Virus record (IMG/VR): IMGVR_UViG_3300010970_000150
Location: 24,288-88,287 of that record
From: a virus
Strand: one strand, 5' to 3'
Length of the DNA: 64,000 nt
Under the pieces are notes generated by a model. It searched no databases. It saw only the letters and a program-made list of their open reading frames with translations, and was not told the DNA's origin. Positions 1 through 64,000 of this stretch are shown piece after piece. The translations under genes and the position numbers were made by a program. Positions within the stretch are counted from its first letter, which is position 1, and each line of letters starts with the position of its first letter.

Positions 1-233
1 GGAACCTTACGAACGGCTACCACGCTTACCCTTCTTCTTGCCCAGATTACTTCTAGTTTTTCGTCTGTTAGATACTCGGTTAGTTTTCTTTGGCAGACTC
101 TGTGGTTCATTCCGAACTTTTTCGCAATGTCTCTGGATGTATAATACTGGGATGGAATAGATTCCTCCGACACTCGCTTGTACCTTGTGTGGTCGCTCGC
201 CAGTGCGTTCAAGAATTGAATCGTGTTCTTCAT
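1..233 (-). CDS. Small HTH-like protein, truncated by window edge; homolog of 40906..41145
   Basis: Manual translation MKNTIQF...IPSQYYTSRDIAKKFG...LEVIWARRR...RKVP; start overlaps phosphoesterase stop. Confidence 0.65.
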   Translation of the reverse strand, partial: MKNTIQFLNALASDHTRYKRVSEESIPSQYYTSRDIAKKFGMNHRVCQRKLTEYLTDEKLEVIWARRRVSVVAVRKV

Positions 234-985
234 TCTTGGTGGTGGCTGAAGATGAACTTTTCTCCGACTCGGTGTGCTTGCCAAACCTTCCAGTTTTTAT
301 TGTGTACAAATCCGTACATCCATCCAGTACCCCACTTAGAAGTTGCCAATCGATTTTTTGCATAACGCATTTCACGCTTCTTACAGAGACACCCTCCTGA
401 AAAACCAACAGTACCTCTGTATCGCTTTGCATTAGTCTGCTGAATGGAATGGATGTGTCCCATAAGCACTGCCCCTTCCTCAAGTCCGTAGTGGATTGCG
501 TGTTCTTCAACTGCTCTGATTCCACAAGTGTAGCCGTGTACTGTTCGGACAAGACCCAAGGTGTGAACCCCCTCTTCAGCGTGATAGGGGTAGATTTTTT
601 TACACCCAACCTTCTTAAGATTGGAGACAATTTCGTCATCAAGGTCTTGGCAAAAGTCCTTAACGATTCCATTAGTCGATGAGTGAATGAAGTGGCTGAT
701 TCGGTCTTCGTGGTTTCCATAGTGAAAAACTGTGGGTTTTAGTTCATTGATAAATTGCAAGCCAGCCTCGACATCATCGTGCAAGGATTCGGCTTCCTCC
801 TTGCCGCTGGCTCCAGACCTGAGACTACGAAAATCGAAGCAGTCTCCCAAATGGATGACCTCGTCAGGCTGGTAGTCCTGAATGAAATCAAACAGTTGTT
901 TTGCGGCTTCGGTATCTACCATATCTCCGTGGTTATCACCAACGGCAACGAACTTTATTTTTTTGCTTTTGTTTTTTTGGGACAT
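230..985 (-). CDS. Calcineurin-like metallophosphoesterase
   Basis: GDNHG, HLGDCFD, GNHED, HG and GHIH motifs. Confidence 0.9.
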   Translation of the reverse strand: MSQKNKSKKIKFVAVGDNHGDMVDTEAAKQLFDFIQDYQPDEVIHLGDCFDFRSLRSGASGKEEAESLHDDVEAGLQFINELKPTVFHYGNHEDRISHFIHSSTNGIVKDFCQDLDDEIVSNLKKVGCKKIYPYHAEEGVHTLGLVRTVHGYTCGIRAVEEHAIHYGLEEGAVLMGHIHSIQQTNAKRYRGTVGFSGGCLCKKREMRYAKNRLATSKWGTGWMYGFVHNKNWKVWQAHRVGEKFIFSHHQE

Positions 986-1235
986 AAGGGTTGTTCAGGC
1001 TCCTGAGGTTTAGAGGTTTCGTATTGTAGCAACTTGTACCTTAGTTCAGCGACTTCGTTGGTAAGGTACAGCATTGCTTGAACCATCTCTTCATACTTTA
1101 CTGTTTTCGGAGTCATCTGGGATTTCAAAATTGTGACCGCTGACAGTCTTGATTGGCTTTTCTTTGGTGGCTCGCTTTAGAGCATCAATCAGTTCTTCAA
1201 CGCTGATTCCTAGCATAAATGCACAAGCCTTAAGA

Positions 1236-1421
1236 CTATTTTGCTTCGTGTGATTCATATTTGTTCAGTGAGAAAAGATAAGCCCATCGAGCCTTGGCAT
1301 CGTTAAAGTATCGCTTGGTTGCAATAAATTCTGATGTGGTTTGGTTCTTTAACCCAGCCACAAGATGACCGCCTTCGTGGGCTGGTCGCTTCCAAGTACG
1401 CTTGCGTTTCTTGGTGCTCAC
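1236..1421 (-). CDS. Hypothetical protein, homolog of 43366..43599
   Basis: Shared AGxK...RWAxLF...NK pattern. Confidence 0.55.
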   Translation of the reverse strand: MSTKKRKRTWKRPAHEGGHLVAGLKNQTTSEFIATKRYFNDAKARWAYLFSLNKYESHEAK

Positions 1422-1834
1422 AGGATGCCTCTGGCACGATTAAGTGCAGGGTAATCAAGGTTGGTATTTAGTTTACGCTTAAAGGCTCCAGTAACGCCCA
1501 TACAATAGCACATATAGACACGCATAGGAGTAGGCTTGATGCCATTAGATTGAAGAGTCTTTACAATCCATTCGCAGTGCCATTGGGCTACCTGCCGTGC
1601 AATTGGATAATTGAATGCGTTAGACTTGTTGTAAGGCCAGTTGGCTAAGTTACGCTTACAAGCATCCTCCCAAGCGGAGCGGTGCAATTGATAGGCTCCA
1701 AGAGCCTGACCTTTATCTGAGACGGCAGTGCAGTGATTGCTAGACTCGATGACGGCTAATTTATTCAAAAAGTCGTCCGTAATTTCCATCGCCTGTGCTT
1801 TGAGACACAGGAGAAGTAGCGTTGCGTATTTCAT
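1418..1834 (-). CDS. Lysozyme-like/lytic transglycosylase with N-terminal signal peptide (candidate endolysin)
   Basis: IES...AVSDKGQALGAYQL catalytic region; MKYATLLLLCLKAQA leader. Confidence 0.75.
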   Translation of the reverse strand: MKYATLLLLCLKAQAMEITDDFLNKLAVIESSNHCTAVSDKGQALGAYQLHRSAWEDACKRNLANWPYNKSNAFNYPIARQVAQWHCEWIVKTLQSNGIKPTPMRVYMCYCMGVTGAFKRKLNTNLDYPALNRARGIL

Positions 1835-1843
1835 TGGTGAAAA

Positions 1844-1915
1844 TGTCCCTGCTAGGAATCGAACCTAGATAATTCGCTTAGAAGGCGAATGTTCTATCCA
1901 TTGAACTACAGGGAC
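1844..1915 (-). tRNA. tRNA-Arg(UCU)
   Basis: Cloverleaf GTCCCTG/CAGGGAC, anticodon loop CTTCTAA, T loop TTCGATT. Confidence 0.93.
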
Positions 1916-1923
1916 AAGGTCAG

Positions 1924-2646
1924 TTAGAAGGGAACTTCGTCTTGGGATTCAGATTCAGGTTCACCATTCTGCTTCAACGCCCAGAGAGCCTGTGCAGACT
2001 TCTTGAGCGACTGGTCTTTAGCACCGACCTTACCAGTCTTTTCCCACGGCTTAGGCTCCCACTTGTTGGCCCAATAGTCGAGGTCGCTATCAGGAAGGGC
2101 AGACAAGGCAGTACCCTTGTTCTTGCCAAACGGAACAGCGAGTTCGAAATCGATTCCAACGCTACCAGTGTGGGGTGCGACAAATGTAGCGATAGGAGCC
2201 GACTTCTTTACAGCCACAGGAGCAGAGGCAGTCTTAACTACTCGGTCTGCTTCACAGTCATCATCAGTAGTAGCCAGACCCCCAATAGAAGCCAAGCAAT
2301 AGCGTCTCAGGTAGGTCAGGATAGCACCAGCCTGTTGACCAGTAGCCTGTTCACCAACAGGAACAATGCAGGAGGATTCGATGCTCGTGCCATTCTTATG
2401 GGCGATGATGGTCTTGATGCCGATGCCATTGTCGTGGTACTCAGAGGTTGGCAGTTGAATCACAGTAAGGCCGTGCTTGTGGAACAGGGGCTTAAGGTAA
2501 GACAAATGAGCCGACAGGCTGGCAAATTTCGACTTAAAATGCGGATTGAAGTCATCCGCAACAATGTCCTTCGTCTCAGAATGCACATTTCCTAGTGCGA
2601 TGTACAACTCAGACAGGTTAGGCTTAGGAATAGTATCGTCTTGCAT
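1924..2646 (-). CDS. erf: ERF-family single-strand annealing protein
   Basis: NPHFKSKFASL, GAILTYLRRYCL, DDDCE motifs; acidic DEVPF tail; start moved to MQDDT. Confidence 0.88.
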   Translation of the reverse strand: MQDDTIPKPNLSELYIALGNVHSETKDIVADDFNPHFKSKFASLSAHLSYLKPLFHKHGLTVIQLPTSEYHDNGIGIKTIIAHKNGTSIESSCIVPVGEQATGQQAGAILTYLRRYCLASIGGLATTDDDCEADRVVKTASAPVAVKKSAPIATFVAPHTGSVGIDFELAVPFGKNKGTALSALPDSDLDYWANKWEPKPWEKTGKVGAKDQSLKKSAQALWALKQNGEPESESQDEVPF

Positions 2647-2668
2647 ATCGATTCGTTTCCAGAGTTCG

Positions 2669-2884
2669 TTACTTCTTGCTAACCACTTCATCGTTAACCT
2701 TTCGGCTATTGGATGCATTGATTCGAACAGCATTGCCTTGGTCGTTGATGAACGAATAGTACAGATAGTGCTTAACCTTTACAGGCTTCAGCAATCGTGC
2801 CATTCGACCATCTGGGAGTACGATGTACTTCCGTGCGTTATTGACCTCAATGATAGAGGTCGTTTCGTTATTTTGGGTTTCCAT
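2669..2884 (-). CDS. Small hypothetical protein, homolog of 44501..44695
   Basis: YIVLPDGRMARLLKP vs YIVLSDGRVARLLKP. Confidence 0.7.
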   Translation of the reverse strand: METQNNETTSIIEVNNARKYIVLPDGRMARLLKPVKVKHYLYYSFINDQGNAVRINASNSRKVNDEVVSKK

Positions 2885-2900
2885 ATGTTTGGGTGGGAAA

Positions 2901-3587
2901 TTACTGAGCGGCTCCGTAGATTCGGAAGTAGTCCTTAAGTCTGCGAATGATTGCAGAGCCTGTCTCTCCGTTTGAGAATCTGTCGGATAGTCCGCTTCCG
3001 TTGTAGTTGGTTGTGATGATGGTTGAGCGTTTATTGGAAGTCCGCTCGTCAATGATTGCAAACAAATCGCTCTCCATACGCTGAGTCAAGCGTTCTTTAC
3101 CTAAATCGTCAATGACCAGCAGAGAGCAAGCCACGAGGCGTTCAATCACCTCTCCGTGGTTCTGGTTTGCGAAACCTTCCTCAATTTGCTGTTCCAGTTT
3201 CCGCATCGTCAGGAAATTGCTGTGCTTCGGGTAGAAGTGGAGCCAGCCCTTGTTGAACATAGCCCAAGCAGTGCGTGTCTTGCCAGTTCCAGTGACTCCG
3301 TGCAACAGGACGCTATGCTCAGGATGGTACTCCTTCAGTGCGGTCTGCATCTGCGGAGCCAACTTGCTTTCCACAGTGTCGAGAAAGCCAATCGGAGTGG
3401 AAGGATGGGTTGATTTGAAGCACCAGTTGTGCTTGTCAAAAACATCCTTGTAGATGTACGGATACTCGTGATGCTCCTTGGTCGGGAAGCAGTTCAAGCA
3501 CACGGACACGAATGGTTTGAACTTCTGGCTGTTAGCGTCCCACACAGGGGTCGCATCAGACTTGCAGTGAATGCACTTAGAAGCCAT
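2901..3587 (-). CDS. DnaC/IstB-like AAA+ helicase loader
   Basis: N-terminal CxxC pairs, Walker A GVTGTGKT, Walker B IDDLGKE, TTNY. Confidence 0.9.
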   Translation of the reverse strand: MASKCIHCKSDATPVWDANSQKFKPFVSVCLNCFPTKEHHEYPYIYKDVFDKHNWCFKSTHPSTPIGFLDTVESKLAPQMQTALKEYHPEHSVLLHGVTGTGKTRTAWAMFNKGWLHFYPKHSNFLTMRKLEQQIEEGFANQNHGEVIERLVACSLLVIDDLGKERLTQRMESDLFAIIDERTSNKRSTIITTNYNGSGLSDRFSNGETGSAIIRRLKDYFRIYGAAQ

Positions 3588-4206
3588 TGGCGTGGTCGTT
3601 ATTGGTTAGCGTTTTGGTTTTGTTGGCGGTTACTACAAAAAGACCCTGCCAGCCGAAAGCAATGCTTTTGTTGATTGAAGCAATTGCGTTTATTTCGTTT
3701 GCCCAAGAACCAAGCATTGTCAACTGCTCCTGTTGCGTCATCGCTGACAAGGGCTTCTTGATTTGCTTTCGATAATCAATCCATTTGTCCCAAGCCGTCT
3801 TGAATGCTTCTGCGTAAGGAAGGGTTAGGGTAGGTTTATCCTCTTTTTTATCTGCTGTTCTATCTGTAGGAAGTCTACTTCCCCCCCTGCGGGAAATAGG
3901 TTTCCCCCTCCCTAGGAAATCTGTAGCACCCACCAAGGCTTGCTTCTCCACTGTCCGTAGGATGCGTTTGCCGTTCACTTCGATGCGGACTACCAACTGG
4001 AAGTCGATAAGGGTTTTGAGGACATTCTTGACCTGTCTGTCGCTCAGTTGCAGGGTCTGTGCAAGGTAGCCGTTAGAGGCGTAACAGCCCTCTTCATTGT
4101 CGAGGGCGTTCACGATTCCGTACACCACCTTCTCGGTGATGGTAAGGGTTTCCATCTGGAAGACCTCTACAGGAATCCAGACACCAGTGAATGATGGCTT
4201 GCTCAC
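3577..4206 (-). CDS. Replication initiator (winged HTH, lambda O-like)
   Basis: GCYASNGYLA HTH, WxxYRK and GWQGLF C-domain, directly upstream of DnaC-like gene. Confidence 0.8.
   Translation of the reverse strand: MSKPSFTGVWIPVEVFQMETLTITEKVVYGIVNALDNEEGCYASNGYLAQTLQLSDRQVKNVLKTLIDFQLVVRIEVNGKRILRTVEKQALVGATDFLGRGKPISRRGGSRLPTDRTADKKEDKPTLTLPYAEAFKTAWDKWIDYRKQIKKPLSAMTQQEQLTMLGSWANEINAIASINKSIAFGWQGLFVVTANKTKTLTNNDHANGF
3869..3931. repeat. Iteron-like repeats inside initiator gene (candidate origin, unit A)
   Basis: GGAAGTCTACTTCCCCC, GGAAATAGGTTTCCCCC, GGAAATCTGTAGCACCC at ~23-bp period. Confidence 0.55.
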
Positions 4207-4997
4207 AGGCTTCCGTAATTGATGTTCAGGTCACCAAGGACACCGCCCTGTGGGCCTTCCCAGAAGTCGCTCTGCTTGCTATCACCATAGTCGTGCAACT
4301 TCATCTTAACTGCGTTCATCCACTTGAACAGTTCTGTAGGCTCAATCTCCCAAAACGCACAGGTGCTAGGCTCAGAAGTTTCAACTGCAATAAATTCAAA
4401 CCTGAACGGCCTACGATATACTTCTTCAGCCAGTAGACAATAAAAGCCAGCCTGTACCCAGTACATTCTGTCCTTCACTGTGTACCTAAACTTTTCACCA
4501 GATACATCATCACAACTTTTGATGTCCCTGATGATGCCGTTTTCAATGTCAATGATATCAAGACGAGCCTTGCAATCGTGACCGAACAACTTGCCAAGCA
4601 GGACAACCTCAGTGCGGACATCAGCCTGTGCCGCCATCCTCTGCCAGTCAGAATTCTGCTTGATGGCGTTGATAGCCCGAAGCACCACGGCCTCTGAATC
4701 GGCCTTCAGGATGGTCTTGCCAGCCGCACCCTCCTCAAAGGCTTGCTTGATGGCCTTACCCTCCTTGGTACGACCATCCACATCGGGATAGTAGGCGATG
4801 GTCTTGAGGTAATCCTGAGGCTGGAGCATAGCCGTGTGGATGGCAGTGCCAATCCTCATAGCCTCGGTTGTCTCAACCTCCTTCTGGTTACGGAAGTGAT
4901 AGGGTGAGCGGAAGAACGCCTTGAAGCGGGAAGCATTCAGGGCGGGAAGAGAGCGGTATTCGCTCTCCGACATAGTGCTGACTAGTGCGTTATTCAT
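4203..4997 (-). CDS. PD-(D/E)XK exonuclease, RecE/exonuclease VIII-like (DUF3799-type)
   Basis: AMRIGTAIH, KARLD, DIKS, QAGFY, FIAVE motifs. Confidence 0.85.
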   Translation of the reverse strand: MNNALVSTMSESEYRSLPALNASRFKAFFRSPYHFRNQKEVETTEAMRIGTAIHTAMLQPQDYLKTIAYYPDVDGRTKEGKAIKQAFEEGAAGKTILKADSEAVVLRAINAIKQNSDWQRMAAQADVRTEVVLLGKLFGHDCKARLDIIDIENGIIRDIKSCDDVSGEKFRYTVKDRMYWVQAGFYCLLAEEVYRRPFRFEFIAVETSEPSTCAFWEIEPTELFKWMNAVKMKLHDYGDSKQSDFWEGPQGGVLGDLNINYGSL

Positions 4998-5440
4998 TGG
5001 TTGTTTTGGTCGAAGTACATTTGCACAGATGGCTCCGTGCTCCAGTACTTCTCAATCTGTATGCTCCAGATTTGGGCATCGTCAAGCCAGTATCCGATTC
5101 TGGTAAATTCATCCAGAATGACCTTGACAACATTGTCCACATCTGGTTTGGTGGTTTTTACAAGTGTTTTACACTTGCTAATTTTTGGTAAAAGATACTT
5201 TGGGGGGCTATAGTACAGCCTGATGTAGACCCTAAGTGGCCCCTCGCAGGGCTTATCAGGCTTTCCAGCCACCATATACGGCCTAGCAAGGTCTACCCAA
5301 GCGGATACCTTGTTGTTTTTCATCTTGCCTACAAACATTTTGCCGCTCTTAGACCTAAGAACCCTCAAATTGGCCTGATGAGTGCTTTTGGGCGGCTCGA
5401 TGGGCATAACTAACCAACATTGACTTGTAGGCAAATTCAT
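4994..5440 (-). CDS. rusA: RusA-family Holliday junction resolvase
   Basis: KPDVDNVVKVILD...DDAQI signature. Confidence 0.88.
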   Translation of the reverse strand: MNLPTSQCWLVMPIEPPKSTHQANLRVLRSKSGKMFVGKMKNNKVSAWVDLARPYMVAGKPDKPCEGPLRVYIRLYYSPPKYLLPKISKCKTLVKTTKPDVDNVVKVILDEFTRIGYWLDDAQIWSIQIEKYWSTEPSVQMYFDQNNQ

Positions 5441-5456
5441 AATATCGTTGTTTTAT

Positions 5457-5912
5457 ATGGAATCTGAATCCAAATACGAAAGAGTCAAGAATGATAAAAA
5501 ATCAACAACTCTTGAAAAACTTGACGCTAAAAAGAAGGAAGAAATTGTGTGGATGACCGAACAGGGCCATACACAGAAGGAAATTGAGGAAAAAGTTGAG
5601 GTTTCCAGTCACACTGTGGTCGCTGTACGCCAAGATATGGGCAGTCAGGAGTCCTTAGACCTAAAGACTTACAAGGCCAAGACTTCTGACCTGTTCAAGT
5701 CCATCATTATGAAGGGTGCTCTCAGGCTTGATACTGAGATTGATAAACTGCCTATCAGCCAGATGCCTTTGGCCCTAGCAATTCTCATCGATAAGGTACA
5801 GACCCTTAATGACCAGCCTGTCGTGGTCACTGAGCATCGCCTTAGAATCAAGCACGAAGATATTAATAAAATGATTTCGGGCGAGATTGTTGACCTTCCA
5901 GATTCAAAGTAA
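5457..5912 (+). CDS. HTH protein, candidate terminase small subunit; homolog of 49329..49805
   Basis: N-terminal HTH then PLALAILIDKVQ...EHRLRIxHEDIN. Confidence 0.5.
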   Translation: MESESKYERVKNDKKSTTLEKLDAKKKEEIVWMTEQGHTQKEIEEKVEVSSHTVVAVRQDMGSQESLDLKTYKAKTSDLFKSIIMKGALRLDTEIDKLPISQMPLALAILIDKVQTLNDQPVVVTEHRLRIKHEDINKMISGEIVDLPDSK

Positions 5913-6023
5913 GGCAATTTTATCCCAAAACGATTTTGTCAAAAATCTTATAGGGTTAGGTCTTAACAGGGTAACAGAAGGAAGGTTTGGTGTCGGTTTG
6001 GCTCGTGCGTTGCAGATTTTTGA

Positions 6024-6056
6024 TTTCTCGACAGCGGTTATCGGGTATAATGGATG
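6024..6056 (+). promoter_or_regulatory. Early promoter with TATAAT -10; near-identical copy at 11064..11096
   Basis: TTTCTCGACAgcggttATCGGgTATAATGgATGT. Confidence 0.6.
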
Positions 6057-6192
6057 TAAGCAAGTAGTGTAGGTCGCACCGATTCGGGTTCGGGTTCCAC
6101 GATGGGACTCACCGAAACATCTGCGTCACTCGTTAACCCAAATCAAAACGAGTGAGTGGAAGGTGCGTACTGAAACGAAAGCGATATACGAT

Positions 6193-6717
6193 ATGGAAAC
6201 TAAAACTAACCTGATGGAACTGCTGGCGAAGATTCAGTGCGTGGAAGTGTTCACCTTCCACCCCTTCAACTACTCCGCTCCGATTATGGGCGAAGACAAG
6301 TACGAGGGCGAAGGCAAGTTCCTCAAAGCGTTCAACGCTATCCTGCGGACGAGCGGTCAGCCGTTCATCTACATCACCGAAAAAGATGAGAGCGGCTGGT
6401 GCTATCGCCGCTCCATCACTGCATATAAGTTCGTGCAGTTGCTCGGCCTTGAAATCCTCAGCACTGGTCTGAAAGGTTTCACCGCACGGATGTTCGCCAA
6501 CGAAAACGGAATGGGCAAAGATGCCGAAGCCGTCATCGCTGACAACACCAAGGAAGTCTACGCTTCCTTCGAAGATGGCGAACGCTACTGGAAGAACCTC
6601 GTGGCTCAGGAACAGGAAATCGCTGATGCCAAGGCTCGCAAGGATGCGATGGAAGCCGCCATCAAGAAGTATAACGAGACGAAGGGTGGCGAAGAGAACA
6701 TCGCTCTGGACGCTTAA
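6193..6717 (+). CDS. Hypothetical early protein
   Basis: ORF after promoter and before terminator; start moved to METKTN. Confidence 0.7.
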   Translation: METKTNLMELLAKIQCVEVFTFHPFNYSAPIMGEDKYEGEGKFLKAFNAILRTSGQPFIYITEKDESGWCYRRSITAYKFVQLLGLEILSTGLKGFTARMFANENGMGKDAEAVIADNTKEVYASFEDGERYWKNLVAQEQEIADAKARKDAMEAAIKKYNETKGGEENIALDA

Positions 6718-6741
6718 CACGAACCAGTAACACCGACTGTG

Positions 6742-6784
6742 GAGAGGAGAGGCGAGCAATCGCTTCTCCTCTCTGCTTTTATTT
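6742..6784 (+). terminator. Intrinsic terminator
   Basis: GAGAGGAGAGGCGA-GCAA-TCGCTTCTCCTCTC followed by T-rich tail. Confidence 0.7.
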
Positions 6785-6805
6785 CCTCCCAAACACATAC
6801 CATAT

Positions 6806-7582
6806 ATGGACGACACAGACTGGAAGAAGACCAAACAATTGTTCAACTTCGACAACGCAAAGACGAAGAAGGGCAATCACCTCGGATACAGCACTGCTAT
6901 CCTCTACCTCGCATCATCCGACTTGTCGGGTGTTGTGAATGTATGCAAACACGCCACGAAGGAATGTCGTGAAGACTGTCTCGTGTTCGCTGGCCTCGCA
7001 GGAATCTTTCCGAAGATTAATGCGGCTCGTGTTCACAAGACCAAGTGGATGCATATGTACCCAGATACTTTCTGGGCGAAGGTTGACCGAGAGATTCTCA
7101 ATCACGAGAACCTCTGCTATCGCAACACGAAGCGATTGAAGCGTAAGTTGAAGCCTTGCGTTCGTATCAACGGCACATCGGATATCTGGAACGAGCATAT
7201 GCAAACGCTTATGCATCGTTACCCTGATGTGCAGTTCTACGATTACAGTAAGGACTTCAATCGCATCGTTGACTGGACGATGGACAAACTGCCGCTCAAC
7301 TATCATCTCACCTATTCGTATGGTGGTGGAAACACCAACAACGCAAAGTGGTGTCTCGATAACGGAGTGAATGTTGCTGTCGTCTTTGATGTGAAGCGTG
7401 GCAAGCCGTTGCCAGTAACGCATTGGGGATACGATGTAGTCGATGGTGACACGCACGACCTTCGCTTCCTCAACAGGCCGTATGCTGGTCAAGGCTCAGT
7501 CATCGGACTCCGTGCGAAAGGCAAAGCATCTGGCAAAGAAGGACGAAGCAATTCGTTCATCCAGAAAGGCGTTGCCTCGTGA
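6806..7582 (+). CDS. GP88-family protein (Cys-cluster, radical-SAM-like)
   Basis: CKHATKECREDCL, RINGTSD, QFYDYSK, VDGDTHDLRF, GLRAKG motifs. Confidence 0.75.
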   Translation: MDDTDWKKTKQLFNFDNAKTKKGNHLGYSTAILYLASSDLSGVVNVCKHATKECREDCLVFAGLAGIFPKINAARVHKTKWMHMYPDTFWAKVDREILNHENLCYRNTKRLKRKLKPCVRINGTSDIWNEHMQTLMHRYPDVQFYDYSKDFNRIVDWTMDKLPLNYHLTYSYGGGNTNNAKWCLDNGVNVAVVFDVKRGKPLPVTHWGYDVVDGDTHDLRFLNRPYAGQGSVIGLRAKGKASGKEGRSNSFIQKGVAS

Positions 7583-7749: not shown

Positions 7750-7764
7750 GAACAGGATTTCTCA

Positions 7765-56469: not shown

Positions 56470-57167
56470 GTGCCCTTTTCCGACCCTCTAGGATGCCCTC
56501 AGAAGCCCTAGCAAGGGTCTGCCCATACCCTAGCCTACCCCGATAGAAGCCCACCTCCTAGAGCCTCCATAATCCGGCCTTATCCAGTCCATCAGTTCCT
56601 CTAATACCCACTCACTAGCGTAAATAGATTTGCTTTTTACATTCTTTTTACACTCACCCTTTCCAATTGATTCAGGCGTATTCTCAATGCGTTCTCATCT
56701 TCTACTAGATAGGATATAGACTGGGTGAATCCGTTTCACCACTCAGCCCTTTACATTCTATAAGAAGCCTACTATACGGGGGGCGGGGGTCTGTCTTTCT
56801 TTTCGGTGGCTAGTATGGGACGGGTCTGTCCAGACACTTTTTTTAGTCCAATAAGCAATAGCGAGTACGAAGCATCAGTACGAGCGAGGAGAGGGGTTAT
56901 TAGGGGAGGTTAAAAGGGCTTGTGTCAAGCACTCATTTAATGTATAGAAGATAAAAGCCGATTCTGCTTGACGCATCGCCTGAGAATCCCCCTATGTACC
57001 CCCTGTTGTTCACCCCCTCAGTCCCCCAATTCTGGGGGAAGGGATTTAAAGTTTCTAGTTGACTCTATAAGTTCTTCTAGGAATATAAGGTTGTTCTTAG
57101 AAGAAATCCCAGCGAGTCTCAACGAGCGAAGGTTCTATTCTAGGTTGTTCTTTCACTTGCCTTAATT

Positions 57168-57229
57168 GGCTACCAACTAATCCGTGAGGCTTATAACCTC
57201 GTAATCTGGTGCAAGTCCAGAGATAGACA
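57168..57229 (+). pseudogene. Degenerate/D-armless tRNA-Ile(UAU)-like element
   Basis: TGAGG-CTTATAA-CCTCG anticodon arm, TCTGG-TGCAAGT-CCAGA T arm, weak acceptor stem. Confidence 0.45.
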
Positions 57230-57435
57230 AGGAGGGTACATAATGCAGAGTCGATGAAGCGTACAGTATGTTACGGCTGAACAGGCTTGCGGCTCTATGC
57301 CGTGGGTACGCAGAGACGATGCAAGGATAACAACAGACTTTGATATCAAGTCCTAGTTCCTTGGATGCCCCAAGTGCGTCCGTATCAACCTAAATCTATA
57401 CAGACCTGAAGTAAACGAAGGAACGGAATCATTTC

Positions 57436-57507
57436 GCCTTGTTAGCACAGCGGTAGTGCGACTGTTTTGTAAACAGTAGGTCGTAGGTTCAATTCCTACA
57501 CAAGGCT
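57436..57507 (+). tRNA. tRNA-Thr(UGU)
   Basis: GCCTTGT/ACAAGGC, loop TTTGTAA. Confidence 0.93.
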
Positions 57508-57562
57508 CTTTTATAACGGCTTCCTCCTCTGCGTGACAGGTAACAAGAGGGAGTCATCCTTT

Positions 57563-57676
57563 GGGTGCTGTAGATAACTACAGGATGTGAGTAAATGTTA
57601 ATACAGGTCATAATGGCATAATAGCGTAAACTGATTAACCAATATCCATCGGTGGGGCTAGAATCCCACCCACCCT
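57563..57676 (+). ncRNA. tRNA-like RNA with extended anticodon-position helix
   Basis: GGGTG/CACCC, CTGTAG/CTACAG, long GATGT/ATATC and GTTAAT/ATTAAC arm, GGTGGG-GCTAGAAT-CCCACC. Confidence 0.45.
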
Positions 57677-57684
57677 CTACTTTA

Positions 57685-57756
57685 CGACCCTTAGTTCAAC
57701 GGATAGAACACCCGCCTTCTAAGCGGGTCATCCAAGTTCGATTCTTGGAGGGTCGA
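57685..57756 (+). tRNA. tRNA-Arg(UCU)
   Basis: CGACCCT/AGGGTCG, loop CTTCTAA. Confidence 0.93.
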
Positions 57757-57810
57757 GTTTCAGTACTGTCCTGCCCTCTTGACAATGGTTTCTCTAGGAC
57801 AGTCGTTTTC

Positions 57811-57881
57811 AGACTCGTGGTGTAATGGTAGCACAGGAGTTTTTGGTACTCCTTGTCGGGGTTCAAGTCCCTGCGGGTCTT
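57811..57881 (+). tRNA. tRNA-Gln(UUG)
   Basis: AGACTCG/CGGGTCT, loop TTTTGGT. Confidence 0.9.
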
Positions 57882-57888
57882 CTTTGAT

Positions 57889-57962
57889 GGGGGCGTAACT
57901 TAGCGGTTAAAGTGAAGTCTTTATAAGGCTTATATCGGTGGGTTCGACTCCCCCCGCCCCTA
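57889..57962 (+). tRNA. tRNA-Ile(UAU)
   Basis: GGGGGCG/CGCCCCT, loop TTTATAA, T loop TTCGACT. Confidence 0.8.
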
Positions 57963-58022
57963 TATTACGATTTGTAGAGAAACGGCTTGACAGTCCAGAG
58001 CATAAGCATTCCTAATGACCCT

Positions 58023-58421
58023 ATGAAGGAAAAGGAACTCTCTGTCGCTGTCGGTCTCTCTCGTGATATCCTCAAGGGTGTCCGCACCCTCTTTGAGGAA
58101 GGTAAGTGCTGGAAGAAGATTCCCTCGCTCAAGCCTGAGAACCTCTGGCAGATTGAATGGACTCCTGAAGGTATCCTGCTACTGCGAGAACATCTAGGTC
58201 TCAAGCCCACGGAGGCAGTCGAGCCGCCCAAGCAGGTCTCTGGTACAGTATCCGCTAAGCACCGCAACCCTCGTGTCATCAGCGTCCTCATCGAGGGCAA
58301 GGAACACAGCGTACTCTGCCGTGACTCCTCTAAGTTCGGTCTTGGTATGCCTGTCGATGTACGATGGGATGGAGCACGATGGGTGGTCGTGCGACACCCT
58401 CGGTTCAACGGAAAGTACTAA
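58023..58421 (+). CDS. Hypothetical protein, homolog of 11997..12482
   Basis: MKEKEL...LKGVR...EG...KPENLWQIEWT. Confidence 0.7.
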   Translation: MKEKELSVAVGLSRDILKGVRTLFEEGKCWKKIPSLKPENLWQIEWTPEGILLLREHLGLKPTEAVEPPKQVSGTVSAKHRNPRVISVLIEGKEHSVLCRDSSKFGLGMPVDVRWDGARWVVVRHPRFNGKY

Positions 58422-58646
58422 ACTAAAAATTTTTTAAACCAGACTATGAAAAACGAATCCAGACACGAAAAGGGCGAAGGCAAGCAGATGCGTAAGATGG
58501 AGCGAGAGAGAGTCTCCTACAAGGCTGGCTCTAAACCGATGAAGCCTTGCAAGTACAAAACCAAGGGCAAGAAGTGACAATACTATGGGAGACCCAAACG
58601 ACATCGAAGAAGATGATGACGATGATATCCCATTCCAAGAACTGAT

Positions 58647-60254
58647 ATGGCTTTCACTCCTACCCCTCACCCTATTCTTGTCACTCCGACTCAGGAGGAG
58701 ATTAGGAGTTTGGCTGAAAAGGTAGGGGCTGAAAGGACTGCTGAAATCCTGACCCTGCGAGAGGATAAGATACTTGCAGAGAAGTTAGACCCTTACCGCC
58801 ACGGCTTTGACCTCCCGCATTGGAAGGAAGCCGACCAGTTGCTCAAGGAGAACAACGAGGTGCTTATCCTAGGCGGCAACAGAGCGTCCAAAACTGAGTG
58901 GGCGGCTAAGCGGGTTGTCCAAACGCTTATCAATATCAAGGATGCCAGAGTATGGTGTTTGCATACTACGAATCAGTCGAGTATCCAGATGCAACAGAAT
59001 GTCATCTATAAGTACCTGCCGTCTGAGTTCAAGGAACTCCGAAAGAACAAGGTGCAGAATGTTCAGTACACTCAGAAGAACGGCTTCTCCGATAACACCT
59101 TCATTCTGCCTAACAAGAGCCAATGCTTCTTTATGAACTACGCCCAGAAGCGAGATGTCATTGAAGGTGGCGAGGTTGATTTTATCTGGTGCGATGAACT
59201 TGTGCCGCTGGACTGGGTTGAGACGCTACGCTATCGTGCAGTCACTCGTATGGGTAAGATGGTTGTCACATTCACACCTATCTCTGGCTACAGTTCTGTG
59301 GTTAAGGAGTATGTAAGCGGTGCGAAGATTACGGAGACACTTGCCTCCCCCTTGCTACCAGACTCCCAGAATGTGATGGGATGCCCTAGGGGTCATATGC
59401 CGTACAAGGCTAAATCTTTTAATCGCTCTTCAGCGGTGATGTGGTTTCATAGCCAACTCAATCCGTACAATCCTTTTGAGAACCTCAAGAAGACCCTTGC
59501 TGGCAAGAAGTCCTACGAGATTAAGATTCGTGCGTATGGCTGGGCTGACAATATCAGCGGTAGTCAGTTCCCACGATTCAACCCAGAGGTAAATGTCGTT
59601 AAGGCTGAAAACATCCCCAAGGAAGGCACGAACTATTTTATCACCGACCCTGCTGGAGCAAGAAACTGGTTTATGCTCTGGGCTAGGGTTGACAAGGAAG
59701 GGAATATATATGTCTATAGAGAGTTCCCAGACACTTCAGACGGAGAGTGGGCGTTACCCTCTGGAGACCCTGACGGAAAGGCAGGGACAGCCCAAAGAAA
59801 CGGAGCAGGGAGGTCTCTGGCTGACTACAAGCAGATGATTCTTGACCTAGAGCAGGGCGAGTCCATCTGGGAGCGATATATCGACCCTCGTGCTGGCGGC
59901 TCTAAGGCTGTGACTGACGAAGGCGGCACAACGCTCATCGAGATGCTTGATGGTGGCGAGAACCCTATGAACTTCCAGCCAGCCGCTGGTATCCGTATCG
60001 AACAGGGCGTAGCAATGATTAATGATGGATTTGCTTACGACTACAACCAAGAGATAAGCCCCTTGAACAAACCAAAACTTTATATCAGCGATGCCTGTGA
60101 AAACCTAATCTATTGCCTAAAGGAATGGACAGGACAGGACGGAGACAAGGGTGCAACCAAAGACCCTATCGACTGCTTACGATACCTTATGACAATGAAT
60201 CCACAATTTCAGGGAAATGACTCTATGAAGGGTTACGGAGGCGGTGGATACTAA
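58647..60254 (+). CDS. terL: Terminase large subunit (unit B)
   Basis: GGNRASKT, WCDE, TFTP, KDPIDCLRY; same length (535 aa) as unit A copy. Confidence 0.92.
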   Translation: MAFTPTPHPILVTPTQEEIRSLAEKVGAERTAEILTLREDKILAEKLDPYRHGFDLPHWKEADQLLKENNEVLILGGNRASKTEWAAKRVVQTLINIKDARVWCLHTTNQSSIQMQQNVIYKYLPSEFKELRKNKVQNVQYTQKNGFSDNTFILPNKSQCFFMNYAQKRDVIEGGEVDFIWCDELVPLDWVETLRYRAVTRMGKMVVTFTPISGYSSVVKEYVSGAKITETLASPLLPDSQNVMGCPRGHMPYKAKSFNRSSAVMWFHSQLNPYNPFENLKKTLAGKKSYEIKIRAYGWADNISGSQFPRFNPEVNVVKAENIPKEGTNYFITDPAGARNWFMLWARVDKEGNIYVYREFPDTSDGEWALPSGDPDGKAGTAQRNGAGRSLADYKQMILDLEQGESIWERYIDPRAGGSKAVTDEGGTTLIEMLDGGENPMNFQPAAGIRIEQGVAMINDGFAYDYNQEISPLNKPKLYISDACENLIYCLKEWTGQDGDKGATKDPIDCLRYLMTMNPQFQGNDSMKGYGGGGY

Positions 60255-60439
60255 TGGAAATCTACTACCCGACACTCTTGTCTCGTCAGAAAGCGATGCT
60301 ATTCGCTAATATTGGACGGATAAGGCTTGAATCGCTTGCCAGAAATGGTCAAGTGAGGACTTTCACCACCAAAGGTGGTCACAAGAGGTACTTCCGTGAT
60401 GACCTCACAAAATATTTAAATGAAATCTTACAAAAATAA
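60254..60439 (+). CDS. Excisionase/MerR-like small HTH protein
   Basis: LLSRQKA...G.VRTFTTKGGHKRYFRDDL. Confidence 0.7.
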   Translation: MEIYYPTLLSRQKAMLFANIGRIRLESLARNGQVRTFTTKGGHKRYFRDDLTKYLNEILQK

Positions 60440-62600
60440 CCAAGACGAACTGGTTTTTGCCAGCGAAACGCCTAATATCCCTTATCTTTACAAGGAATAC
60501 CAGCGTTCTACCCAAAATGGCGGCAACACCGCTAACATCAATGAAAATGATGACATTCGTCTGGCTCGATGGGAAGGTCAAACCCACGATGGCAAAAAGC
60601 ACAGCGAAAATCTCCCCGATGGTCAGCCTGCATTCCCTTTTGAGGGTGCTTCTGATGTCCGTGCTCGTCTAGTTGACCGCACAATTAACGACCTAGTCGC
60701 TATGTGCGTCACGACCTTTGACCGCTGTCAGGTTAAGGTCAAGGGTACTGAGTTCAGCGATTCTGAATCCGCTTCCGTTGCTAATGTGCTGATGTCGTGG
60801 CTTCTTGAGTCTCGTCTGCGTTCTGAACTCCGCAAGGAAGCGGAACTCCTGTGCCAGTACACCCAGCAATACGGCTGGTCTGCCCTTAATGTTATCTGGG
60901 AGCAGGAAATGGGTACACGCTTCCAGAAGATTCGTATGGATGAACTGATGCAGATTGTGCAAGAGGCTGTTCAGCAAAATCCTCAAACAACGCTTAAAGA
61001 CCTCCCTGCCGCTATCCAGAACCCAGAACAAGAGGACTACGCTGTAGACCTTATCTGTATGTATCTCCAGTCGGTTGACCCTAAGGATGTTAAGAAGGCT
61101 ATTAAGGAACTGCGTGAAAAGGGTGTCTGCGAAATCCCTGAACAGTTCGTCTGCAAAAACCAGCCGCTTGTGGTTGCCCTTAAGCCGTATGATGAAATCT
61201 CATTTCCTCCTGAGACTATTGAAATTCAGAAGGCTCGTGTTATCTTCCGCAGAACCTACATCACAGAAGTTGAACTGCGTTCTATGGCGGCTCAAGAAGG
61301 CTGGTCTGAATCTTTTGTCGAACAGGCTGTTAATGTGATGGGAATGCAATCACAGTTTAACGACCCGAATCTCCTGCCTGCCGCCGCCCTGATTAACTAT
61401 CAGGTTGCTCGCAATGACAACCTCATTGAACTCGTGTACGCCTACAGCCGTAACATCAACGAAAATGGCGTTCAGGGCATCTATCAAACTATCTTTTGTC
61501 CTCAGGCTGGTAGCGAAGATTACGCCTCGCACGGACTGCTTGGCTACGCTCACAATAAGTATCCCTTTGTCATTTACCGCAGAGAACGCACCCGCAGAGC
61601 CATTATGGAATCTCGTGGCGTTCCTGAGATTGCGATGACTGACCAAGAAGAAATCAAGGCTCAGCACGATGCTATCCGTGACCGCACAGCGTTCACAACG
61701 ATGCCTCCTATCCTTGTTAAGAAGCGTCTTGGTGGTATCAATAAGATTGCCCCCGGAATTCACCTGCCTGTCACATCAATGGATGACTACAAGTTTATGC
61801 CTGCTCCTACTGACCAGAATCAGCAGGTGGCATTTATGCTCATCGACAGAGTTGAACTGAATCACGCTTCCTACTTTGGTCTGCCTCACCCGCAGATTAT
61901 GCCGCAGAAGACTCAGACCACTCAGCAGTTCGTCATCAACAACTGGCTTGATGTGTGGAGCGAAGCGTTCTCTATGACATTCTCCCTGATGCTCCAGTAT
62001 ATGGAGTCCTCTGAGATTGAGCAGATTACTGGCAACGCCCTCCCGCAAAATATGTCAAGCGTGAGCAATATGTACGACTTCCAAGTTAAGTACGATGTGC
62101 GAGAACTCGACACGAACTTTGTCATTGAGAAACTCAAGGCTATCACGCAGTTCGTCCTTCCTTTGGATGGCGGTGGCGTTATCGACAAGAACAAATTGGT
62201 CAAGGCGGCTATTGAGGCTATTGACCCTGACAAGGCTAAGGAACTTATCATTAACCAGACCTCCGCTTCTCAGCAGATGTATAAGGACATCCAGTCCGAC
62301 ATCGGACTGATGATGCTTGGTAACGAGGCGAACTATGTCGAGAACGACCCTGCCGCCCCCACCAAGTTGCAGTATATGCAAGACATTATGAGCAAGAATC
62401 CTAAGGCTCAAGGTATGATGCAACAAGACCCGCACTTCCGTGCTCTTGTGGAGAATATGATGAAGAACCTTCAGATGTCCGCTATGCAACAGCAGAACAA
62501 GCAAATTGGTCGTACTGGGGTCACCCCTGTCGGTCAGCAAGCCGCTGATGGTATGAAGCAACAGATTGACCAAGCCAACCAACAACAACCTCAGGAATAA
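60420..62600 (+). CDS. Portal protein (unit B)
   Basis: Homolog of 16640..18859. Confidence 0.85.
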   Translation: MKSYKNNQDELVFASETPNIPYLYKEYQRSTQNGGNTANINENDDIRLARWEGQTHDGKKHSENLPDGQPAFPFEGASDVRARLVDRTINDLVAMCVTTFDRCQVKVKGTEFSDSESASVANVLMSWLLESRLRSELRKEAELLCQYTQQYGWSALNVIWEQEMGTRFQKIRMDELMQIVQEAVQQNPQTTLKDLPAAIQNPEQEDYAVDLICMYLQSVDPKDVKKAIKELREKGVCEIPEQFVCKNQPLVVALKPYDEISFPPETIEIQKARVIFRRTYITEVELRSMAAQEGWSESFVEQAVNVMGMQSQFNDPNLLPAAALINYQVARNDNLIELVYAYSRNINENGVQGIYQTIFCPQAGSEDYASHGLLGYAHNKYPFVIYRRERTRRAIMESRGVPEIAMTDQEEIKAQHDAIRDRTAFTTMPPILVKKRLGGINKIAPGIHLPVTSMDDYKFMPAPTDQNQQVAFMLIDRVELNHASYFGLPHPQIMPQKTQTTQQFVINNWLDVWSEAFSMTFSLMLQYMESSEIEQITGNALPQNMSSVSNMYDFQVKYDVRELDTNFVIEKLKAITQFVLPLDGGGVIDKNKLVKAAIEAIDPDKAKELIINQTSASQQMYKDIQSDIGLMMLGNEANYVENDPAAPTKLQYMQDIMSKNPKAQGMMQQDPHFRALVENMMKNLQMSAMQQQNKQIGRTGVTPVGQQAADGMKQQIDQANQQQPQE

Positions 62601-62872
62601 TGCGTTACCCTAACCAAATCATTACAGGTCTGTCGTTTGAAAAGAACAATGACCTCTGGAAGGCTGTTCATATGCTCATAGACGCTTCTATTGAATCTGA
62701 GGTGGCTACAGCCATCTCCAGAGAGGTTAAGGGCGAGGATAGGGCTTGGTTTGCTGGTAGGGCTGAGGCTCTGACGGCTTTTAAGTCTATCCTCATCCAG
62801 ACACGAGAAGAAGTGCTGGCTGACCAAGGAAGACCCTCTGAGGCACATAGTTCGTCAGAAAGCGGTATGTAA
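62600..62872 (+). CDS. Small conserved post-portal protein (unit B)
   Basis: Homolog of 18859..19104. Confidence 0.7.
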   Translation: MRYPNQIITGLSFEKNNDLWKAVHMLIDASIESEVATAISREVKGEDRAWFAGRAEALTAFKSILIQTREEVLADQGRPSEAHSSSESGM

Positions 62873-62975
62873 TGGTTATAGTACTTGCTTAGTATAATTT
62901 TAAGCCGTAACTGGCTACTAGTTCTGGAACTATTACAACATCCTGCATATAAAAACGGACTTTAGACCTTATCTA

Positions 62976-63986
62976 ATGAATACAGAAAATCAAGCCGACC
63001 TTAGCACGGCTCAAAACAACGCTACGAAAAACGAAAGCACCCCGCAGGCTTTTGATATCAGTAAACTCGCTGACATAGTTAGCGAATCCTTCCTAGGCGG
63101 TAAGGAAAATAGTGAGTCTTCAGTCTCGCAGGAGCAAACTGAAGCGGAAGTTCAAGCGACTTCCGAGAATAGTGAGGTTCTTTCTCAAGATAACGATACA
63201 GCCACCGAACAGGACGAGTCTACAGATTCCGAGGAAACCGAAGAAACCAAATCTGAAGATAACGAACTTGATAGGGGCTTGCCCAAAGGTGTTAAGAAAC
63301 GCATCGACAAACTCTCTGCCAAACGCAGGGAGGCTGAAGCAGAAGTGGAACGACTCCGTTCTGAGGTGGATAGACTGTCGCAAGAGGCTAACAAGCCAGC
63401 ACAGATTCCGACTCAGGACAATCCTTACGCTCACCTGTCTACGCTAGAAGAGGTTAATCGAGAGATTGACCAAGCCAAGCAAATCAGACGCTGGTGCGAA
63501 ATGAACCCCGATGGTGCAGTAGTAACAGGTAAGGATGGAAACGAAGTGGAATACTCCGCTGAAGAAGTGCGAAACATCAAAATCAAGTCTCTTGATGCGA
63601 TGGAAGACCACCTCCCCAAGCGTATGCAGTACCTCCAGAACTTCAATCAGATGGAAACCATTGCCGCTAAGGAATACCCTTGGTGGAAGGATAAGGCATC
63701 ACGAGACAGACAAATCGCTGAGACTTTCCTGAAGGCTTTCCCTGAAATCCAGAAATTCCCTGACTACAAGATGGTGATTGGTGATTACATCTCTGGCGTA
63801 AAAGCGAGAGAATCCAAAGGCAAGTCCTCTGGAGTTATCAACAAAGCACCCAACCAGCCTAGACCTTCCTCAGCCCCGAACTCCATTCCTTCCAAGGATA
63901 TGAAGTCTCAGCAAGCCCAGAAGCGTTTTTCTGCATCGAACTCTAGAGATGACCTTCAAACTATAATCGCTAACCGATTCCTGTAA
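62976..63986 (+). CDS. Capsid scaffolding protein (unit B)
   Basis: GVKKRIDKL, KEYPWWKDK, FPDYKMVIGDYI shared with unit A. Confidence 0.82.
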   Translation: MNTENQADLSTAQNNATKNESTPQAFDISKLADIVSESFLGGKENSESSVSQEQTEAEVQATSENSEVLSQDNDTATEQDESTDSEETEETKSEDNELDRGLPKGVKKRIDKLSAKRREAEAEVERLRSEVDRLSQEANKPAQIPTQDNPYAHLSTLEEVNREIDQAKQIRRWCEMNPDGAVVTGKDGNEVEYSAEEVRNIKIKSLDAMEDHLPKRMQYLQNFNQMETIAAKEYPWWKDKASRDRQIAETFLKAFPEIQKFPDYKMVIGDYISGVKARESKGKSSGVINKAPNQPRPSSAPNSIPSKDMKSQQAQKRFSASNSRDDLQTIIANRFL

Positions 63987-64000
63987 TCATTCAAAACCCC

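Follow-up and report, generated by a model that had tools for sequence, protein, structure and literature searches.

An 88-kb circular viral contig that is very probably a mis-join of two freshwater podophage genomes at a shared repeat

Circular viral contigs recovered from metagenomes have been discussed in two settings close to the case described here. In its treatment of DTR contigs, the CheckV study regards DTR lengths such as 55, 77 and 99 as likely assembler k-mer lengths, and considers DTR contigs of about twice the expected length in IMG/VR to be probable metagenomic assembly artefacts (Nayfach et al. 2020, PMC8116208). The Phables study, where it deals with co-occurring phages, describes how modules shared between them lead to fragmented or chimeric contigs, and proposes coverage-based flow decomposition as a way of separating such genomes (Mallawaarachchi et al. 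2023, PMC10563150). The IMG/VR record IMGVR_UViG_3300010970_000150 is publicly listed as DTR, 100% complete and 88 kb in length. Our analysis indicates that this "circular" contig is very probably an assembly artefact in which two distinct podophages of ~44 kb were mis-joined at a repeat, here called R. It holds two complete genomes strung into one circle, not one mixed genome.

Layout of the circle and its two genome copies

The window, that is, the whole stretch of 64,000 nucleotides analyzed, is the final 64 kb of the 88,287-bp contig; the first 24,287 bases lie outside it and contain the other copy of R together with the remaining structural genes of genome 2. The contig's two ends have an exact 55-bp repeat in common, which closes the sequence into a circle of 88,232 bp. 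This terminal repeat is a circularization overlap left by the assembler. A search for exact repeats uncovered a single long one, R, which spans 2,311 bp and is present in two copies in direct orientation, at window positions 23167-25477 and contig positions 3031-5341 (blastn, 100% identity over 2,311 bases at two places; string equality and the positions of the codons were checked). The next longest words in common measure only 49 and 43 bp. The order of the circle is thus R-X-R-Y, which resolves to units of 44,423 bp (R+X, genome 1) and 43,809 bp (R+Y, genome 2). The main features, in window coordinates, are as follows.

1..23166, no strand: arc X (genome 1, low depth) within the window; the arc starts outside it, at contig position 5342
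15033..16640, + strand: terL of genome 1 (535 aa; phrog_2, E 1e-12)
20213..21241, + strand: major head protein of genome 1 (phrog_1328, E 2.5e-33)
22783..23166, + strand: left shoulder of the shared module, 82-92% identical to the flank of the other genome, compared with 50-65% as background, in an identity profile of 100-bp steps
23167..25477, + strand: R, copy 2, the switch point from genome 1 to genome 2 in the assembly
25478..63945, no strand: arc Y (genome 2, high depth) within the window; it continues at contig positions 1-3030, outside the window
40214..41235, no strand: supposed copy boundary; native, contiguous genome 2 sequence
58647..60254, + strand: terL of genome 2 (535 aa), which pairs with 15033-16640
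63946..64000, + strand: 55-bp terminal repeat, identical to contig positions 1-55; the relative G002 (below) aligns straight across the join

A sequence-only reading of the window had proposed two diverged copies of one phage genome type in the same orientation, and this is borne out at both the protein and the nucleotide level. The copies are collinear, belong to one podophage genome type and are ~65% identical in nucleotide sequence. Among 118 greedy ORFs from the whole contig, named by family using PHROGs and Pfam, we identified 22 protein pairs (E<=1e-3) with 30-66% amino acid identity. Both members lie in the window for 11 of these: phosphoesterase, SLT/lysozyme-like, Erf, DnaC-like, O-like initiator, exonuclease VIII, a 154/158-aa ORF, terL (66% amino acid identity), portal (51%), an 81/90-aa ORF and scaffold (46%). 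Weaker pairs detected by tblastn involve HTH proteins (34% over 65 aa, E 3e-5) and 161/144-aa proteins at 11997/57987 (30% over 80 aa, E 1e-4). Self-blastn of the window returned collinear matches at offsets of 41.7-44.1 kb, including terL (15145-16570 against 58759-60184, 65.8% nucleotide identity), portal (70%), scaffold (76%) and phosphoesterase (63.6%). Thr-TGT and Arg-TCT tRNAs form two further pairs between the copies.

Each arc, taken together with R, encodes a full gene set comprising replication proteins, terL, portal, scaffold, head proteins, nozzle and a giant virion protein. In the window, arc X carries early and replication genes on the minus strand, tRNA-Arg, tRNA-Thr, HNH, terL, portal, scaffold, the major head protein and head-tail genes. 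The partner of the major head protein in genome 2 lies outside the window (contig 74-1105, 54% amino acid identity). On arc Y lie the C-terminus of the nozzle protein and the genes for the tail and the interior of the virion, among them a 2,586-aa ORF; the arc also has early genes on the minus strand, an ArdC-like gene and four tRNAs, together with terL, portal and scaffold. The giant ORFs (2,586 and 3,511 aa) could be assigned to no family in PHROG or Pfam, and no sequence in the PDB matched them at E<=0.01.

The natural size of such genomes is directly visible in relatives, which are single units. There are 387 relatives in IMG/VR, and the longest contig among the best 80 measures 46,700 bp. 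Ten long, near-complete relatives (42.7-46.7 kb) have one terL each, and two of these are DTR-closed, at 44,179 and 45,767 bp; with its 88,232 bp, the circle is about twice the 42.7-46.7 kb of these relatives. Among 50,697 records of deposited phages, terL matched only five by tblastn, the best at 35% amino acid identity (Phage C75C1, 39.5 kb), and these phages (terL <=35%) were set aside as too distant to bear on the junction.

Two independent contigs each correspond to one arc. G001 (43,235 bp, CheckV 95%) follows X alone in collinear order, at 82-92% nucleotide identity over contig positions 7238-47085, and a single HSP spans window position 1. Its terL is 99% identical to that of genome 1, which in turn has 66% amino acid identity to the second terL of the contig. 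G002 (43,901 bp, CheckV 100%) likewise follows Y alone in collinear order, at 66-89% nucleotide identity, and crosses the join between contig end and start, its path leading from contig position 73999 to 52058, through the R region, from 2385 to 1, and then from 88287 to 73848. The genome 2 terL is 94.6-95.1% identical in amino acids to the terLs of three other IMG/VR contigs (those behind L078, L067 and L068).

These alignments place the joins. The flanking sequence changes genome at both copies of R, which is observed directly: G001 matches only the arc that leads from copy 1 to copy 2, and G002 only the arc from copy 2 back to copy 1. A switch had been predicted somewhere between 20.2 and 40.9 kb, and it is found at window positions 23167-25477; the mechanism then ranked as most likely, a chimera formed through a shared near-identical stretch, agrees with the exact 2,311-bp R present twice in the contig. 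The copy boundaries that had been placed at window positions ~1 and ~40906 do not hold. Single-unit relatives run across them, as does a 15,878-bp Logan contig (window 25448-41325 by its record coordinates), and around the second boundary G002 is aligned in order to contig positions 64538-64814 and 65180-65432. The joins are therefore the two R copies, not the points at which gene order restarts. The absence of a broken gene or scar, noted in the earlier reading, is confirmed and explained: the join runs inside identical sequence and each ORF crosses one edge of R only, so that no ORF is broken and no scar is visible. The GC contents of X (45.2%), Y (48.2%) and R (43.1%) do not identify the origin of R.

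Fibre-like and nozzle genes in the shared repeat

The repeat takes in codons 162-284 of a Gly/Tyr-rich ORF, an ORF of 60 aa and, from the tail nozzle gene, codons 1-546. The two genes that cross the edges of its second copy are listed below.

22684..23538, + strand: 284-aa low-complexity protein rich in Gly, Tyr, Ser and Thr; N-terminus from genome 1, C-terminus within R
23840..26143, + strand: tail nozzle protein of genome 2 (767 aa), residues 1-546 in R

The 284-aa protein is probably a fibrous virion appendage. It has 88% amino acid identity to the other copy, and by tblastn its conservation in relatives is limited to the first ~44-100 residues; no family was found for it in PHROG or Pfam. 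From its position before the nozzle gene, an adaptor of the T7 gp11 or P22 gp4 type would be expected, an assignment dropped for this low-complexity protein with only its N-terminus conserved.

The 767-aa protein belongs to PHROG 3287 ("virion structural protein", E 4e-12). Its AlphaFold2 model, built from 29 sequences (pLDDT 75.1, pTM 0.72), gave its best Foldseek matches, at E 1e-22 to 1e-12, to podophage tail and portal-tail complex chains from Pa223, A4, SU10, VP1, T7 and P22 (gp10). One of the T7 entries is titled nozzle gp12, and the top 30 rows are all podophage tail or portal-tail chains. With a protein of predicted nozzle fold downstream of the head genes, these phages fit the description of podoviruses with a tail of the T7/P22 type. 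The predicted fold matches those of podophage nozzles (T7 gp12, P22 gp10 and the SU10, Pa223, A4 and VP1 chains), whereas sequence identity to them is merely 8-11%. The protein also differs in having three insertions (residues 103-177, 443-566 and 620-651), present in only 4 of the 29 homologues. The two terL clades each include this long form, with L068 (terL 95% identical to genome 2) and L024 (terL 82% identical to genome 1) as its carriers.

The sole biology of note in this contig is the shared fibre-plus-nozzle module, R, identical in phages whose proteins otherwise have 30-66% amino acid identity. Among 80 related loci, the best match to R has 75% nucleotide identity, and we infer that R is a recently exchanged module. 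There are two slight hints that the genome 2 lineage may have been the donor: the identity of G001 to genome 1 falls from 91% to 69-75% at R, and a third study (run X3, below) joins an R region ~96% alike to Y. Provided that R is truly present in full in the rare genome, the exchange of this tail module would be very recent, and it would imply that both phages meet in one host. An exact search of IMG/VR viral contigs with 60 bases taken from mid-R gave no match, a result of little weight given that the window's own record may be outside that search.

Sequencing depth and competing explanations

The earlier reading had proposed a step in coverage as a test, and such a step is present at R in contig-level depths from Logan assemblies (one mean k-mer figure per contig, together covering 20 kb of the window). 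For perfectly matching contigs of X1, the likely source run, depths are 18.1 to the left of R and 243.3 to the right (~13-fold), and in a second run (X2) the corresponding values are 7.2-8.95 and 90.2 (~10- to 12.5-fold); the two runs may be related samples and are thus not fully independent. To the left, a 14,222-bp Logan contig from X1 covers window positions 13167-22938 with 0 differences at depth 18.1. To the right, the 15,878-bp Logan contig covers 25448-33166 with 0 differences, at depths of 243.3 (X1) and 90.2 (X2), and extends to window position ~41325 by record coordinates. The unequal depth of the arcs is a direct observation, and it departs from the 1:1 ratio expected from one molecule. 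X3 contains the Y arc (4,993 bp with 5 differences, at depth 8.4) together with an R region ~96% alike, and essentially none of the X arc. Run X5 gave one bin at 0.94 for window positions 22505-27173, and its lack of cover carries no weight.

Depths within R are more complex. Three pieces in X1 have depths of 214.7 (left), 194.9 (middle) and 257.6 (right). The right piece nearly equals the depths of the two arcs added together (257.6 vs 261.4 in X1; ~100 vs ~98 in X2, by arithmetic from bin means). On the other hand, the middle piece falls below Y (194.9 vs 243.3 in X1, 75.4 vs 90.2 in X2), as does the left piece, and the Logan unitigs of both runs break within R at ~23637-23666 and ~25160-25189. 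Other alleles of the R region are present in these samples. Given the lower depth of the middle piece and the unitig breaks, the rare genome is only a putative carrier of the middle 1.5 kb of R. In the left shoulder, where exact words in common are only 49, 43 and 20 bp long, the Logan contig of both runs carries the flank of the other genome, with 33 differences, all to the left of 23167, at depths of 214.7 (X1) and 89 (X2). Genome 1's own flank (window 22958-23166) is absent from the Logan contigs of X1 and X2, perhaps through removal of a low-depth bubble branch, so that its link to R comes from the public contig. None of seven loose-end consensus strings from the runs had a match in the contig when as many as 4 mismatches were allowed; they come from further related phages of these samples, not from either arc.

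In the mechanism that we favor, two podophages with DNA ~65% identical, of 44,423 bp (genome 1) and 43,809 bp (genome 2), occur in the same freshwater (lake) samples and would both carry the 2.3-kb R. Two circles with one common repeat would form a figure-8 in the de Bruijn graph; the assembler may then have walked the loops in turn (R, X, R, Y) along a closed path, a route we reconstruct from the product, and closure would have left the k-sized overlap of 55 bp at the ends. One point against it is that an assembler using coverage should have been able to separate arcs 13-fold apart. A wrong join could also arise if the rare genome had its own diverged nozzle region, as G001 does, and short common words or lower-k contigs reused at k=55 led into the abundant R. 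The flank words of 49 and 43 bp would suffice to link the graphs at k=21 or 33, and G001, 91% like X elsewhere, resembles R at only 69-75%. The depth of the middle of R, which lacks a contribution from the rare genome, and the unitig branches inside R point the same way. However, the rare genome's variants persist in the contig until a single base before R (33 differences from the abundant flank), which places the join elsewhere than at the 49-bp word, and the right piece of R has about the depth of both arcs summed (in X1, and by arithmetic in X2). We consider this route very unlikely, and the verdict of an artefact would be the same under it.

The contig might instead be the correct assembly of a real heterodimeric circle, formed by homologous recombination at R in a co-infected cell to give a cointegrate R-X-R-Y. 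Each phage has genes for an annealing protein of the Erf type, a nuclease resembling exonuclease VIII and a junction resolvase (RusA for genome 1 and endonuclease VII for genome 2); the two also have 2.3 kb of identical DNA in common and occur in the same runs, and a figure-8 and a true dimer are indistinguishable in short-read data. Yet with arc depths ~13-fold (X1) and ~10- to 12.5-fold (X2) apart, dimers could account for at most ~7% of genome 2 copies. DTR-closed relatives measure 44.2 and 45.8 kb, and no contig among the best 80 of the 387 is longer than 46.7 kb; an 88-kb molecule would presumably not fit such a capsid. Moreover, X3 has Y without X, and no data demand a dimer. We therefore judge such a circle very unlikely to be what was assembled, and a real heterodimer or tandem element as the main form, one of the options offered earlier, is unsupported with arcs more than 10-fold apart and relatives that are single units. 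That a small fraction of molecules are real R-X-R-Y circles, from recombination at the fibre-nozzle module during co-infection, seems similarly improbable; if true, the contig would be the trace of a physical intermediate in the swapping of modules by phages with a third of their bases different. Least credible of all, and close to dismissed, are tandem related prophages in a bacterial chromosome or an element with an old internal whole-genome duplication. Copies that are collinear, diverged and in the same orientation would fit either, but the contig closes on itself with host flank absent, and no integrase family was found among the 118 ORFs (PHROGs, E<=1e-5). The depth difference of more than 10-fold between the halves already contradicts this reading, and the halves are nearer to single-unit contigs from other samples (up to 91-92% and 89% nucleotide identity) than to each other (~65%).

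Comparison with described assembly artefacts

As an artefact of assembly, the tandem arrangement is without biological meaning, since it is not a real genome. As it stands, the record may distort references for genome size, clustering and completeness. Split at R, it would instead provide two complete ~44-kb genomes from a poorly known group of freshwater podophages.

The likeness to the concatenated contigs treated in the CheckV study (PMC8116208) lies in a DTR contig of about twice the genome length with a terminal repeat of a typical k (55). In the cases described there, the same genome is repeated and k-mer frequency exceeds 1, whereas here the copies are different phages with ~65% nucleotide identity, and the k-mer frequency of the contig is 1.028 at k=20, unlike that of one genome repeated. 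The record is thus a heterologous variant of the CheckV concatenated-contig class, and because its copies are different phages (k-mer frequency 1.03), the usual test for concatemers cannot flag it. With respect to Phables (PMC10563150), the variants whose resolution is described there have >95% ANI, whereas here distant genomes have one module in common; and in place of the fragments described in that study, the outcome would be a graph of two clean loops and a circle closed in error.

Two genome copies and the repeat between them

Self-blastn of the window returned same-strand, collinear matches at offsets of 41.7-44.1 kb, with nucleotide identities between the copies of 65.8% for terL, 70% for portal, 76% for scaffold and 63.6% for phosphoesterase. 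Among 118 ORFs from the whole contig, called with a greedy ORF picker (a few short ones are spurious, some overlapping tRNAs), 22 pairs link the copies at E<=1e-3, and both members lie inside the window for 11 of them. Amino acid identities are mostly 30-66%, with one pair at 74% and three pairs at the joining repeat at 88-100%; an HTH pair (E 3e-5) and a 161/144-aa pair (E 1e-4), both weaker, came from tblastn. Families named by PHROGs and Pfam are metallophosphoesterase, Erf, DnaC-like loader, O-like initiator, exonuclease VIII, SLT transglycosylase, terL, portal and major head protein. Thus, the list of duplicated genes drawn up in the sequence-only reading holds. Genes for tRNA-Thr(TGT) and tRNA-Arg(TCT) were found in each copy and explain the short self-blastn matches of 82-84%.

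The halves are joined by a single exact direct repeat of 2,311 bp (R; contig 3031-5341 and contig 47454-49764, the latter being window 23167-25477), after which the longest words common to both are 49, 43 and 24 bp. Identity between the copies is 50-65% in the background and reaches 82-92% in the 384 bp left of R; it is 100% inside R and, rightwards, 82% for 100 bp and then 55-70%. The window covers bases 24288-88287 of one 88,287-bp viral record, and the first copy of R lies outside it. The first 55 bases of this record match its last 55 exactly, which makes it a circle of 88,232 bp closed by the assembler. Because R is present at two sites with diverged flanks, the order of the circle is R-X-R-Y, with X and Y the arcs between the repeats, and it splits into R+X (genome 1, 44,423 bp) and R+Y (genome 2, 43,809 bp). 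The join leaves no visible scar because the sequence it passes through is identical and no ORF crosses both edges of R:

window 22684-23538, + strand: 284-aa ORF, native gene of genome 1
window 23840-26143, + strand: 767-aa ORF (nozzle), native gene of genome 2

Depth in public runs and single-unit relatives

Public runs containing window 18167-28166 were identified, and depth was taken from Logan contigs of four runs (X1, X2, X3 and X5) over window 13167-33166, with one figure per contig.

X1 (possibly the source sample), X arc: 14,222-bp contig, 0 differences, covering window 13167-22938, depth 18.1
X1, Y arc: 15,878-bp contig, 0 differences, beginning at window 25448, depth 243.3
X2 (from a different sample and study): X arc at depth 7.2-8.95, Y arc at depth 90.2
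X3 (third study): X arc essentially absent; Y arc 4,993 bp, 5 differences, depth 8.4; R region ~96% alike
X5: relatives present left of R, and right of R at a different depth; almost nothing placed in the R region

A coverage step had been proposed as a test from the sequence, and in X1 and X2 the depth does step at R. The 10- to 13-fold gap in abundance between the arcs is not compatible with one molecule carrying a single copy of each. A further X1 contig (758 bp, depth 214.7) runs into R from the left with 33 differences, all before window 23167, which coincide with the sites where contig 2773-3030 departs from the window; this piece thus represents the native flank of genome 2.

Relatives identified by terL in IMG/VR number 387, and the longest contig among the best 80 of these is 46,700 bp. 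A single terL was found in each of the ten relatives measuring 42.7-46.7 kb (CheckV 94-100%), two of which are DTR-closed, at 44,179 and 45,767 bp. The independent single-unit contig G001 (43,235 bp, CheckV 95%, terL 99% to copy 1) aligns only to contig 7238-47085, at 82-92% nucleotide identity, and a single 8.8-kb HSP spans window position 1. Its counterpart for the other arc, G002 (43,901 bp, CheckV 100%, terL 94.6% to copy 2), follows the order contig 73999->52058, R region, 2385->1, 88287->73848 at 66-89% identity, and so spans both the contig end-start join and the window 40.2-41.2 kb region. Since these two contigs span the restarts in gene order (window 1 and 40906), the sequence there is native; the contig switches from one genome to the other at the two R copies and nowhere else.

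We consider it very likely that the tandem pair of phage genomes is not a real feature. The exact repeat, the depth step and the single-unit relatives bear out a metagenomic chimera through a shared stretch, the explanation preferred in the sequence-only reading.

Depth inside R is more complex. Logan unitigs break at about 23637-23666 and 25160-25189, in X1 and X2 alike. The last piece has a depth close to the sum of both arcs (257.6 vs 261.4 in X1; about 100 vs about 98 in X2, by arithmetic from bin means), and the middle piece is less deep than the Y arc by itself (194.9 in X1, 75.4 in X2). These breaks and the low middle depth indicate that other alleles of the R region exist in the samples. 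Sharing of the middle 1.5 kb of R by the rare genome is thus putative, and that genome's own 209-bp flank is absent from the Logan contigs of the runs examined. Neither point affects the artefact verdict; both limit statements on the true nozzle region of genome 1.

Over window 15173-15935, X1 and X2 also gave a 7,981-bp contig (depth 17) whose matches are limited to short, divergent stretches of terL. Loose-end sequences of X1 and X2 contigs had no match in the 88-kb contig. The samples of X1 and X2 contain at least one more related phage.

Gene content of R and of the two genomes

R spans codons 162-284 of the 284-aa protein, which is Gly/Tyr/Ser/Thr-rich and conserved in relatives only at its N-terminus, a 60-aa ORF, and codons 1-546 of the 767-aa protein. 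For the latter, the AlphaFold2 model (29 homologues; pLDDT 75.1, pTM 0.72) matches, at E 1e-22 to 1e-12, podophage tail-complex chains of Pa223, A4, SU10, VP1, P22 (gp10) and T7, one T7 entry bearing the title nozzle gp12; these fold matches identify the protein as the tail nozzle. Three insertions (residues 103-177, 443-566 and 620-651) are present in only 4 of the 29 homologues, and the first has a sub-threshold match to an endosialidase beta-barrel (E 5e-4, 20.4 bits vs a cut-off of 35). Both terL clades include long as well as short nozzle forms, a pattern suggestive of repeated exchange of the gene within the group. An R-like region was found in 24 of 80 related loci, the best just 75% identical to R at the nucleotide level. 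The 100% identity of R is thus striking for two phages whose terLs are 66% identical, and it would mark a very recent exchange should it hold over the full length of R.

Other features of the two genomes are as follows:

window 31465-39225, + strand: giant ORF, 2,586 aa
L003:4443-14978 (contig 10443-20978): giant ORF, 3,511 aa, roughly one quarter of a 44-kb genome
window 54529-55452, + strand: 307-aa protein, genome 2 only; ArdC N-terminal domain (E 7e-20), zincin-like metallopeptidase (E 3.5e-27)
window 1843-1916 (- strand) and 13298-13372 (+ strand): tRNAs Arg(TCT) and Thr(TGT) of genome 1, far apart
window 57436-57963, + strand: tRNA cluster Thr(TGT), Arg(TCT), Gln(TTG), Ile(TAT) of genome 2, before the packaging genes
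window 4994-5440, - strand: RusA-like resolvase, genome 1, replication module
window 48899-49264, - strand: endonuclease VII, genome 2, same replication-module position
window 13377-13757, + strand: HNH endonuclease, genome 1, immediately preceding a 425-aa ORF and terL
window 53167-53237/55636-55706, 53919-53992/54230-54303 and 55540-55654/55786-55901: direct repeats, genome 2 early region

One giant ORF lies downstream of the nozzle in each phage. The two share only 23% identity, over 766 aa, and neither could be assigned to a PHROG or Pfam family or matched to a PDB sequence; judging by position, our guess is that both probably serve as ejection or internal virion proteins. The ArdC-like protein, labeled 'anti-restriction protein' in PHROGs, has no partner in genome 1 in the ORF pair comparison, and no counterpart of the HNH endonuclease was found in genome 2 by PHROGs and sequence comparison. 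RusA and endonuclease VII represent a non-orthologous replacement. The direct repeats scattered in the genome 2 early region (71-123 bp, 72-85% identical by self-blastn) may be repeated regulatory elements.

Comparison with known assembly artefacts

IMG/VR classes the public record as having direct terminal repeats (DTR), with a CheckV completeness of 100%, though two genomes are inside. According to the CheckV paper (PMC8116208), a DTR of, for example, 55, 77 or 99 bases likely reflects the k-mer length of the assembler, and contigs with multiple genome copies are probably metagenomic assembly artefacts. The present record falls in the artefact class described there, but in a heterologous form composed of two different genomes; its k-mer frequency is 1.03, and the same-genome repeat test would therefore raise no duplication warning. 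Mosaic phages that share unitigs are presented as a general problem in the Phables paper (PMC10563150), where a coverage-based resolution is described.
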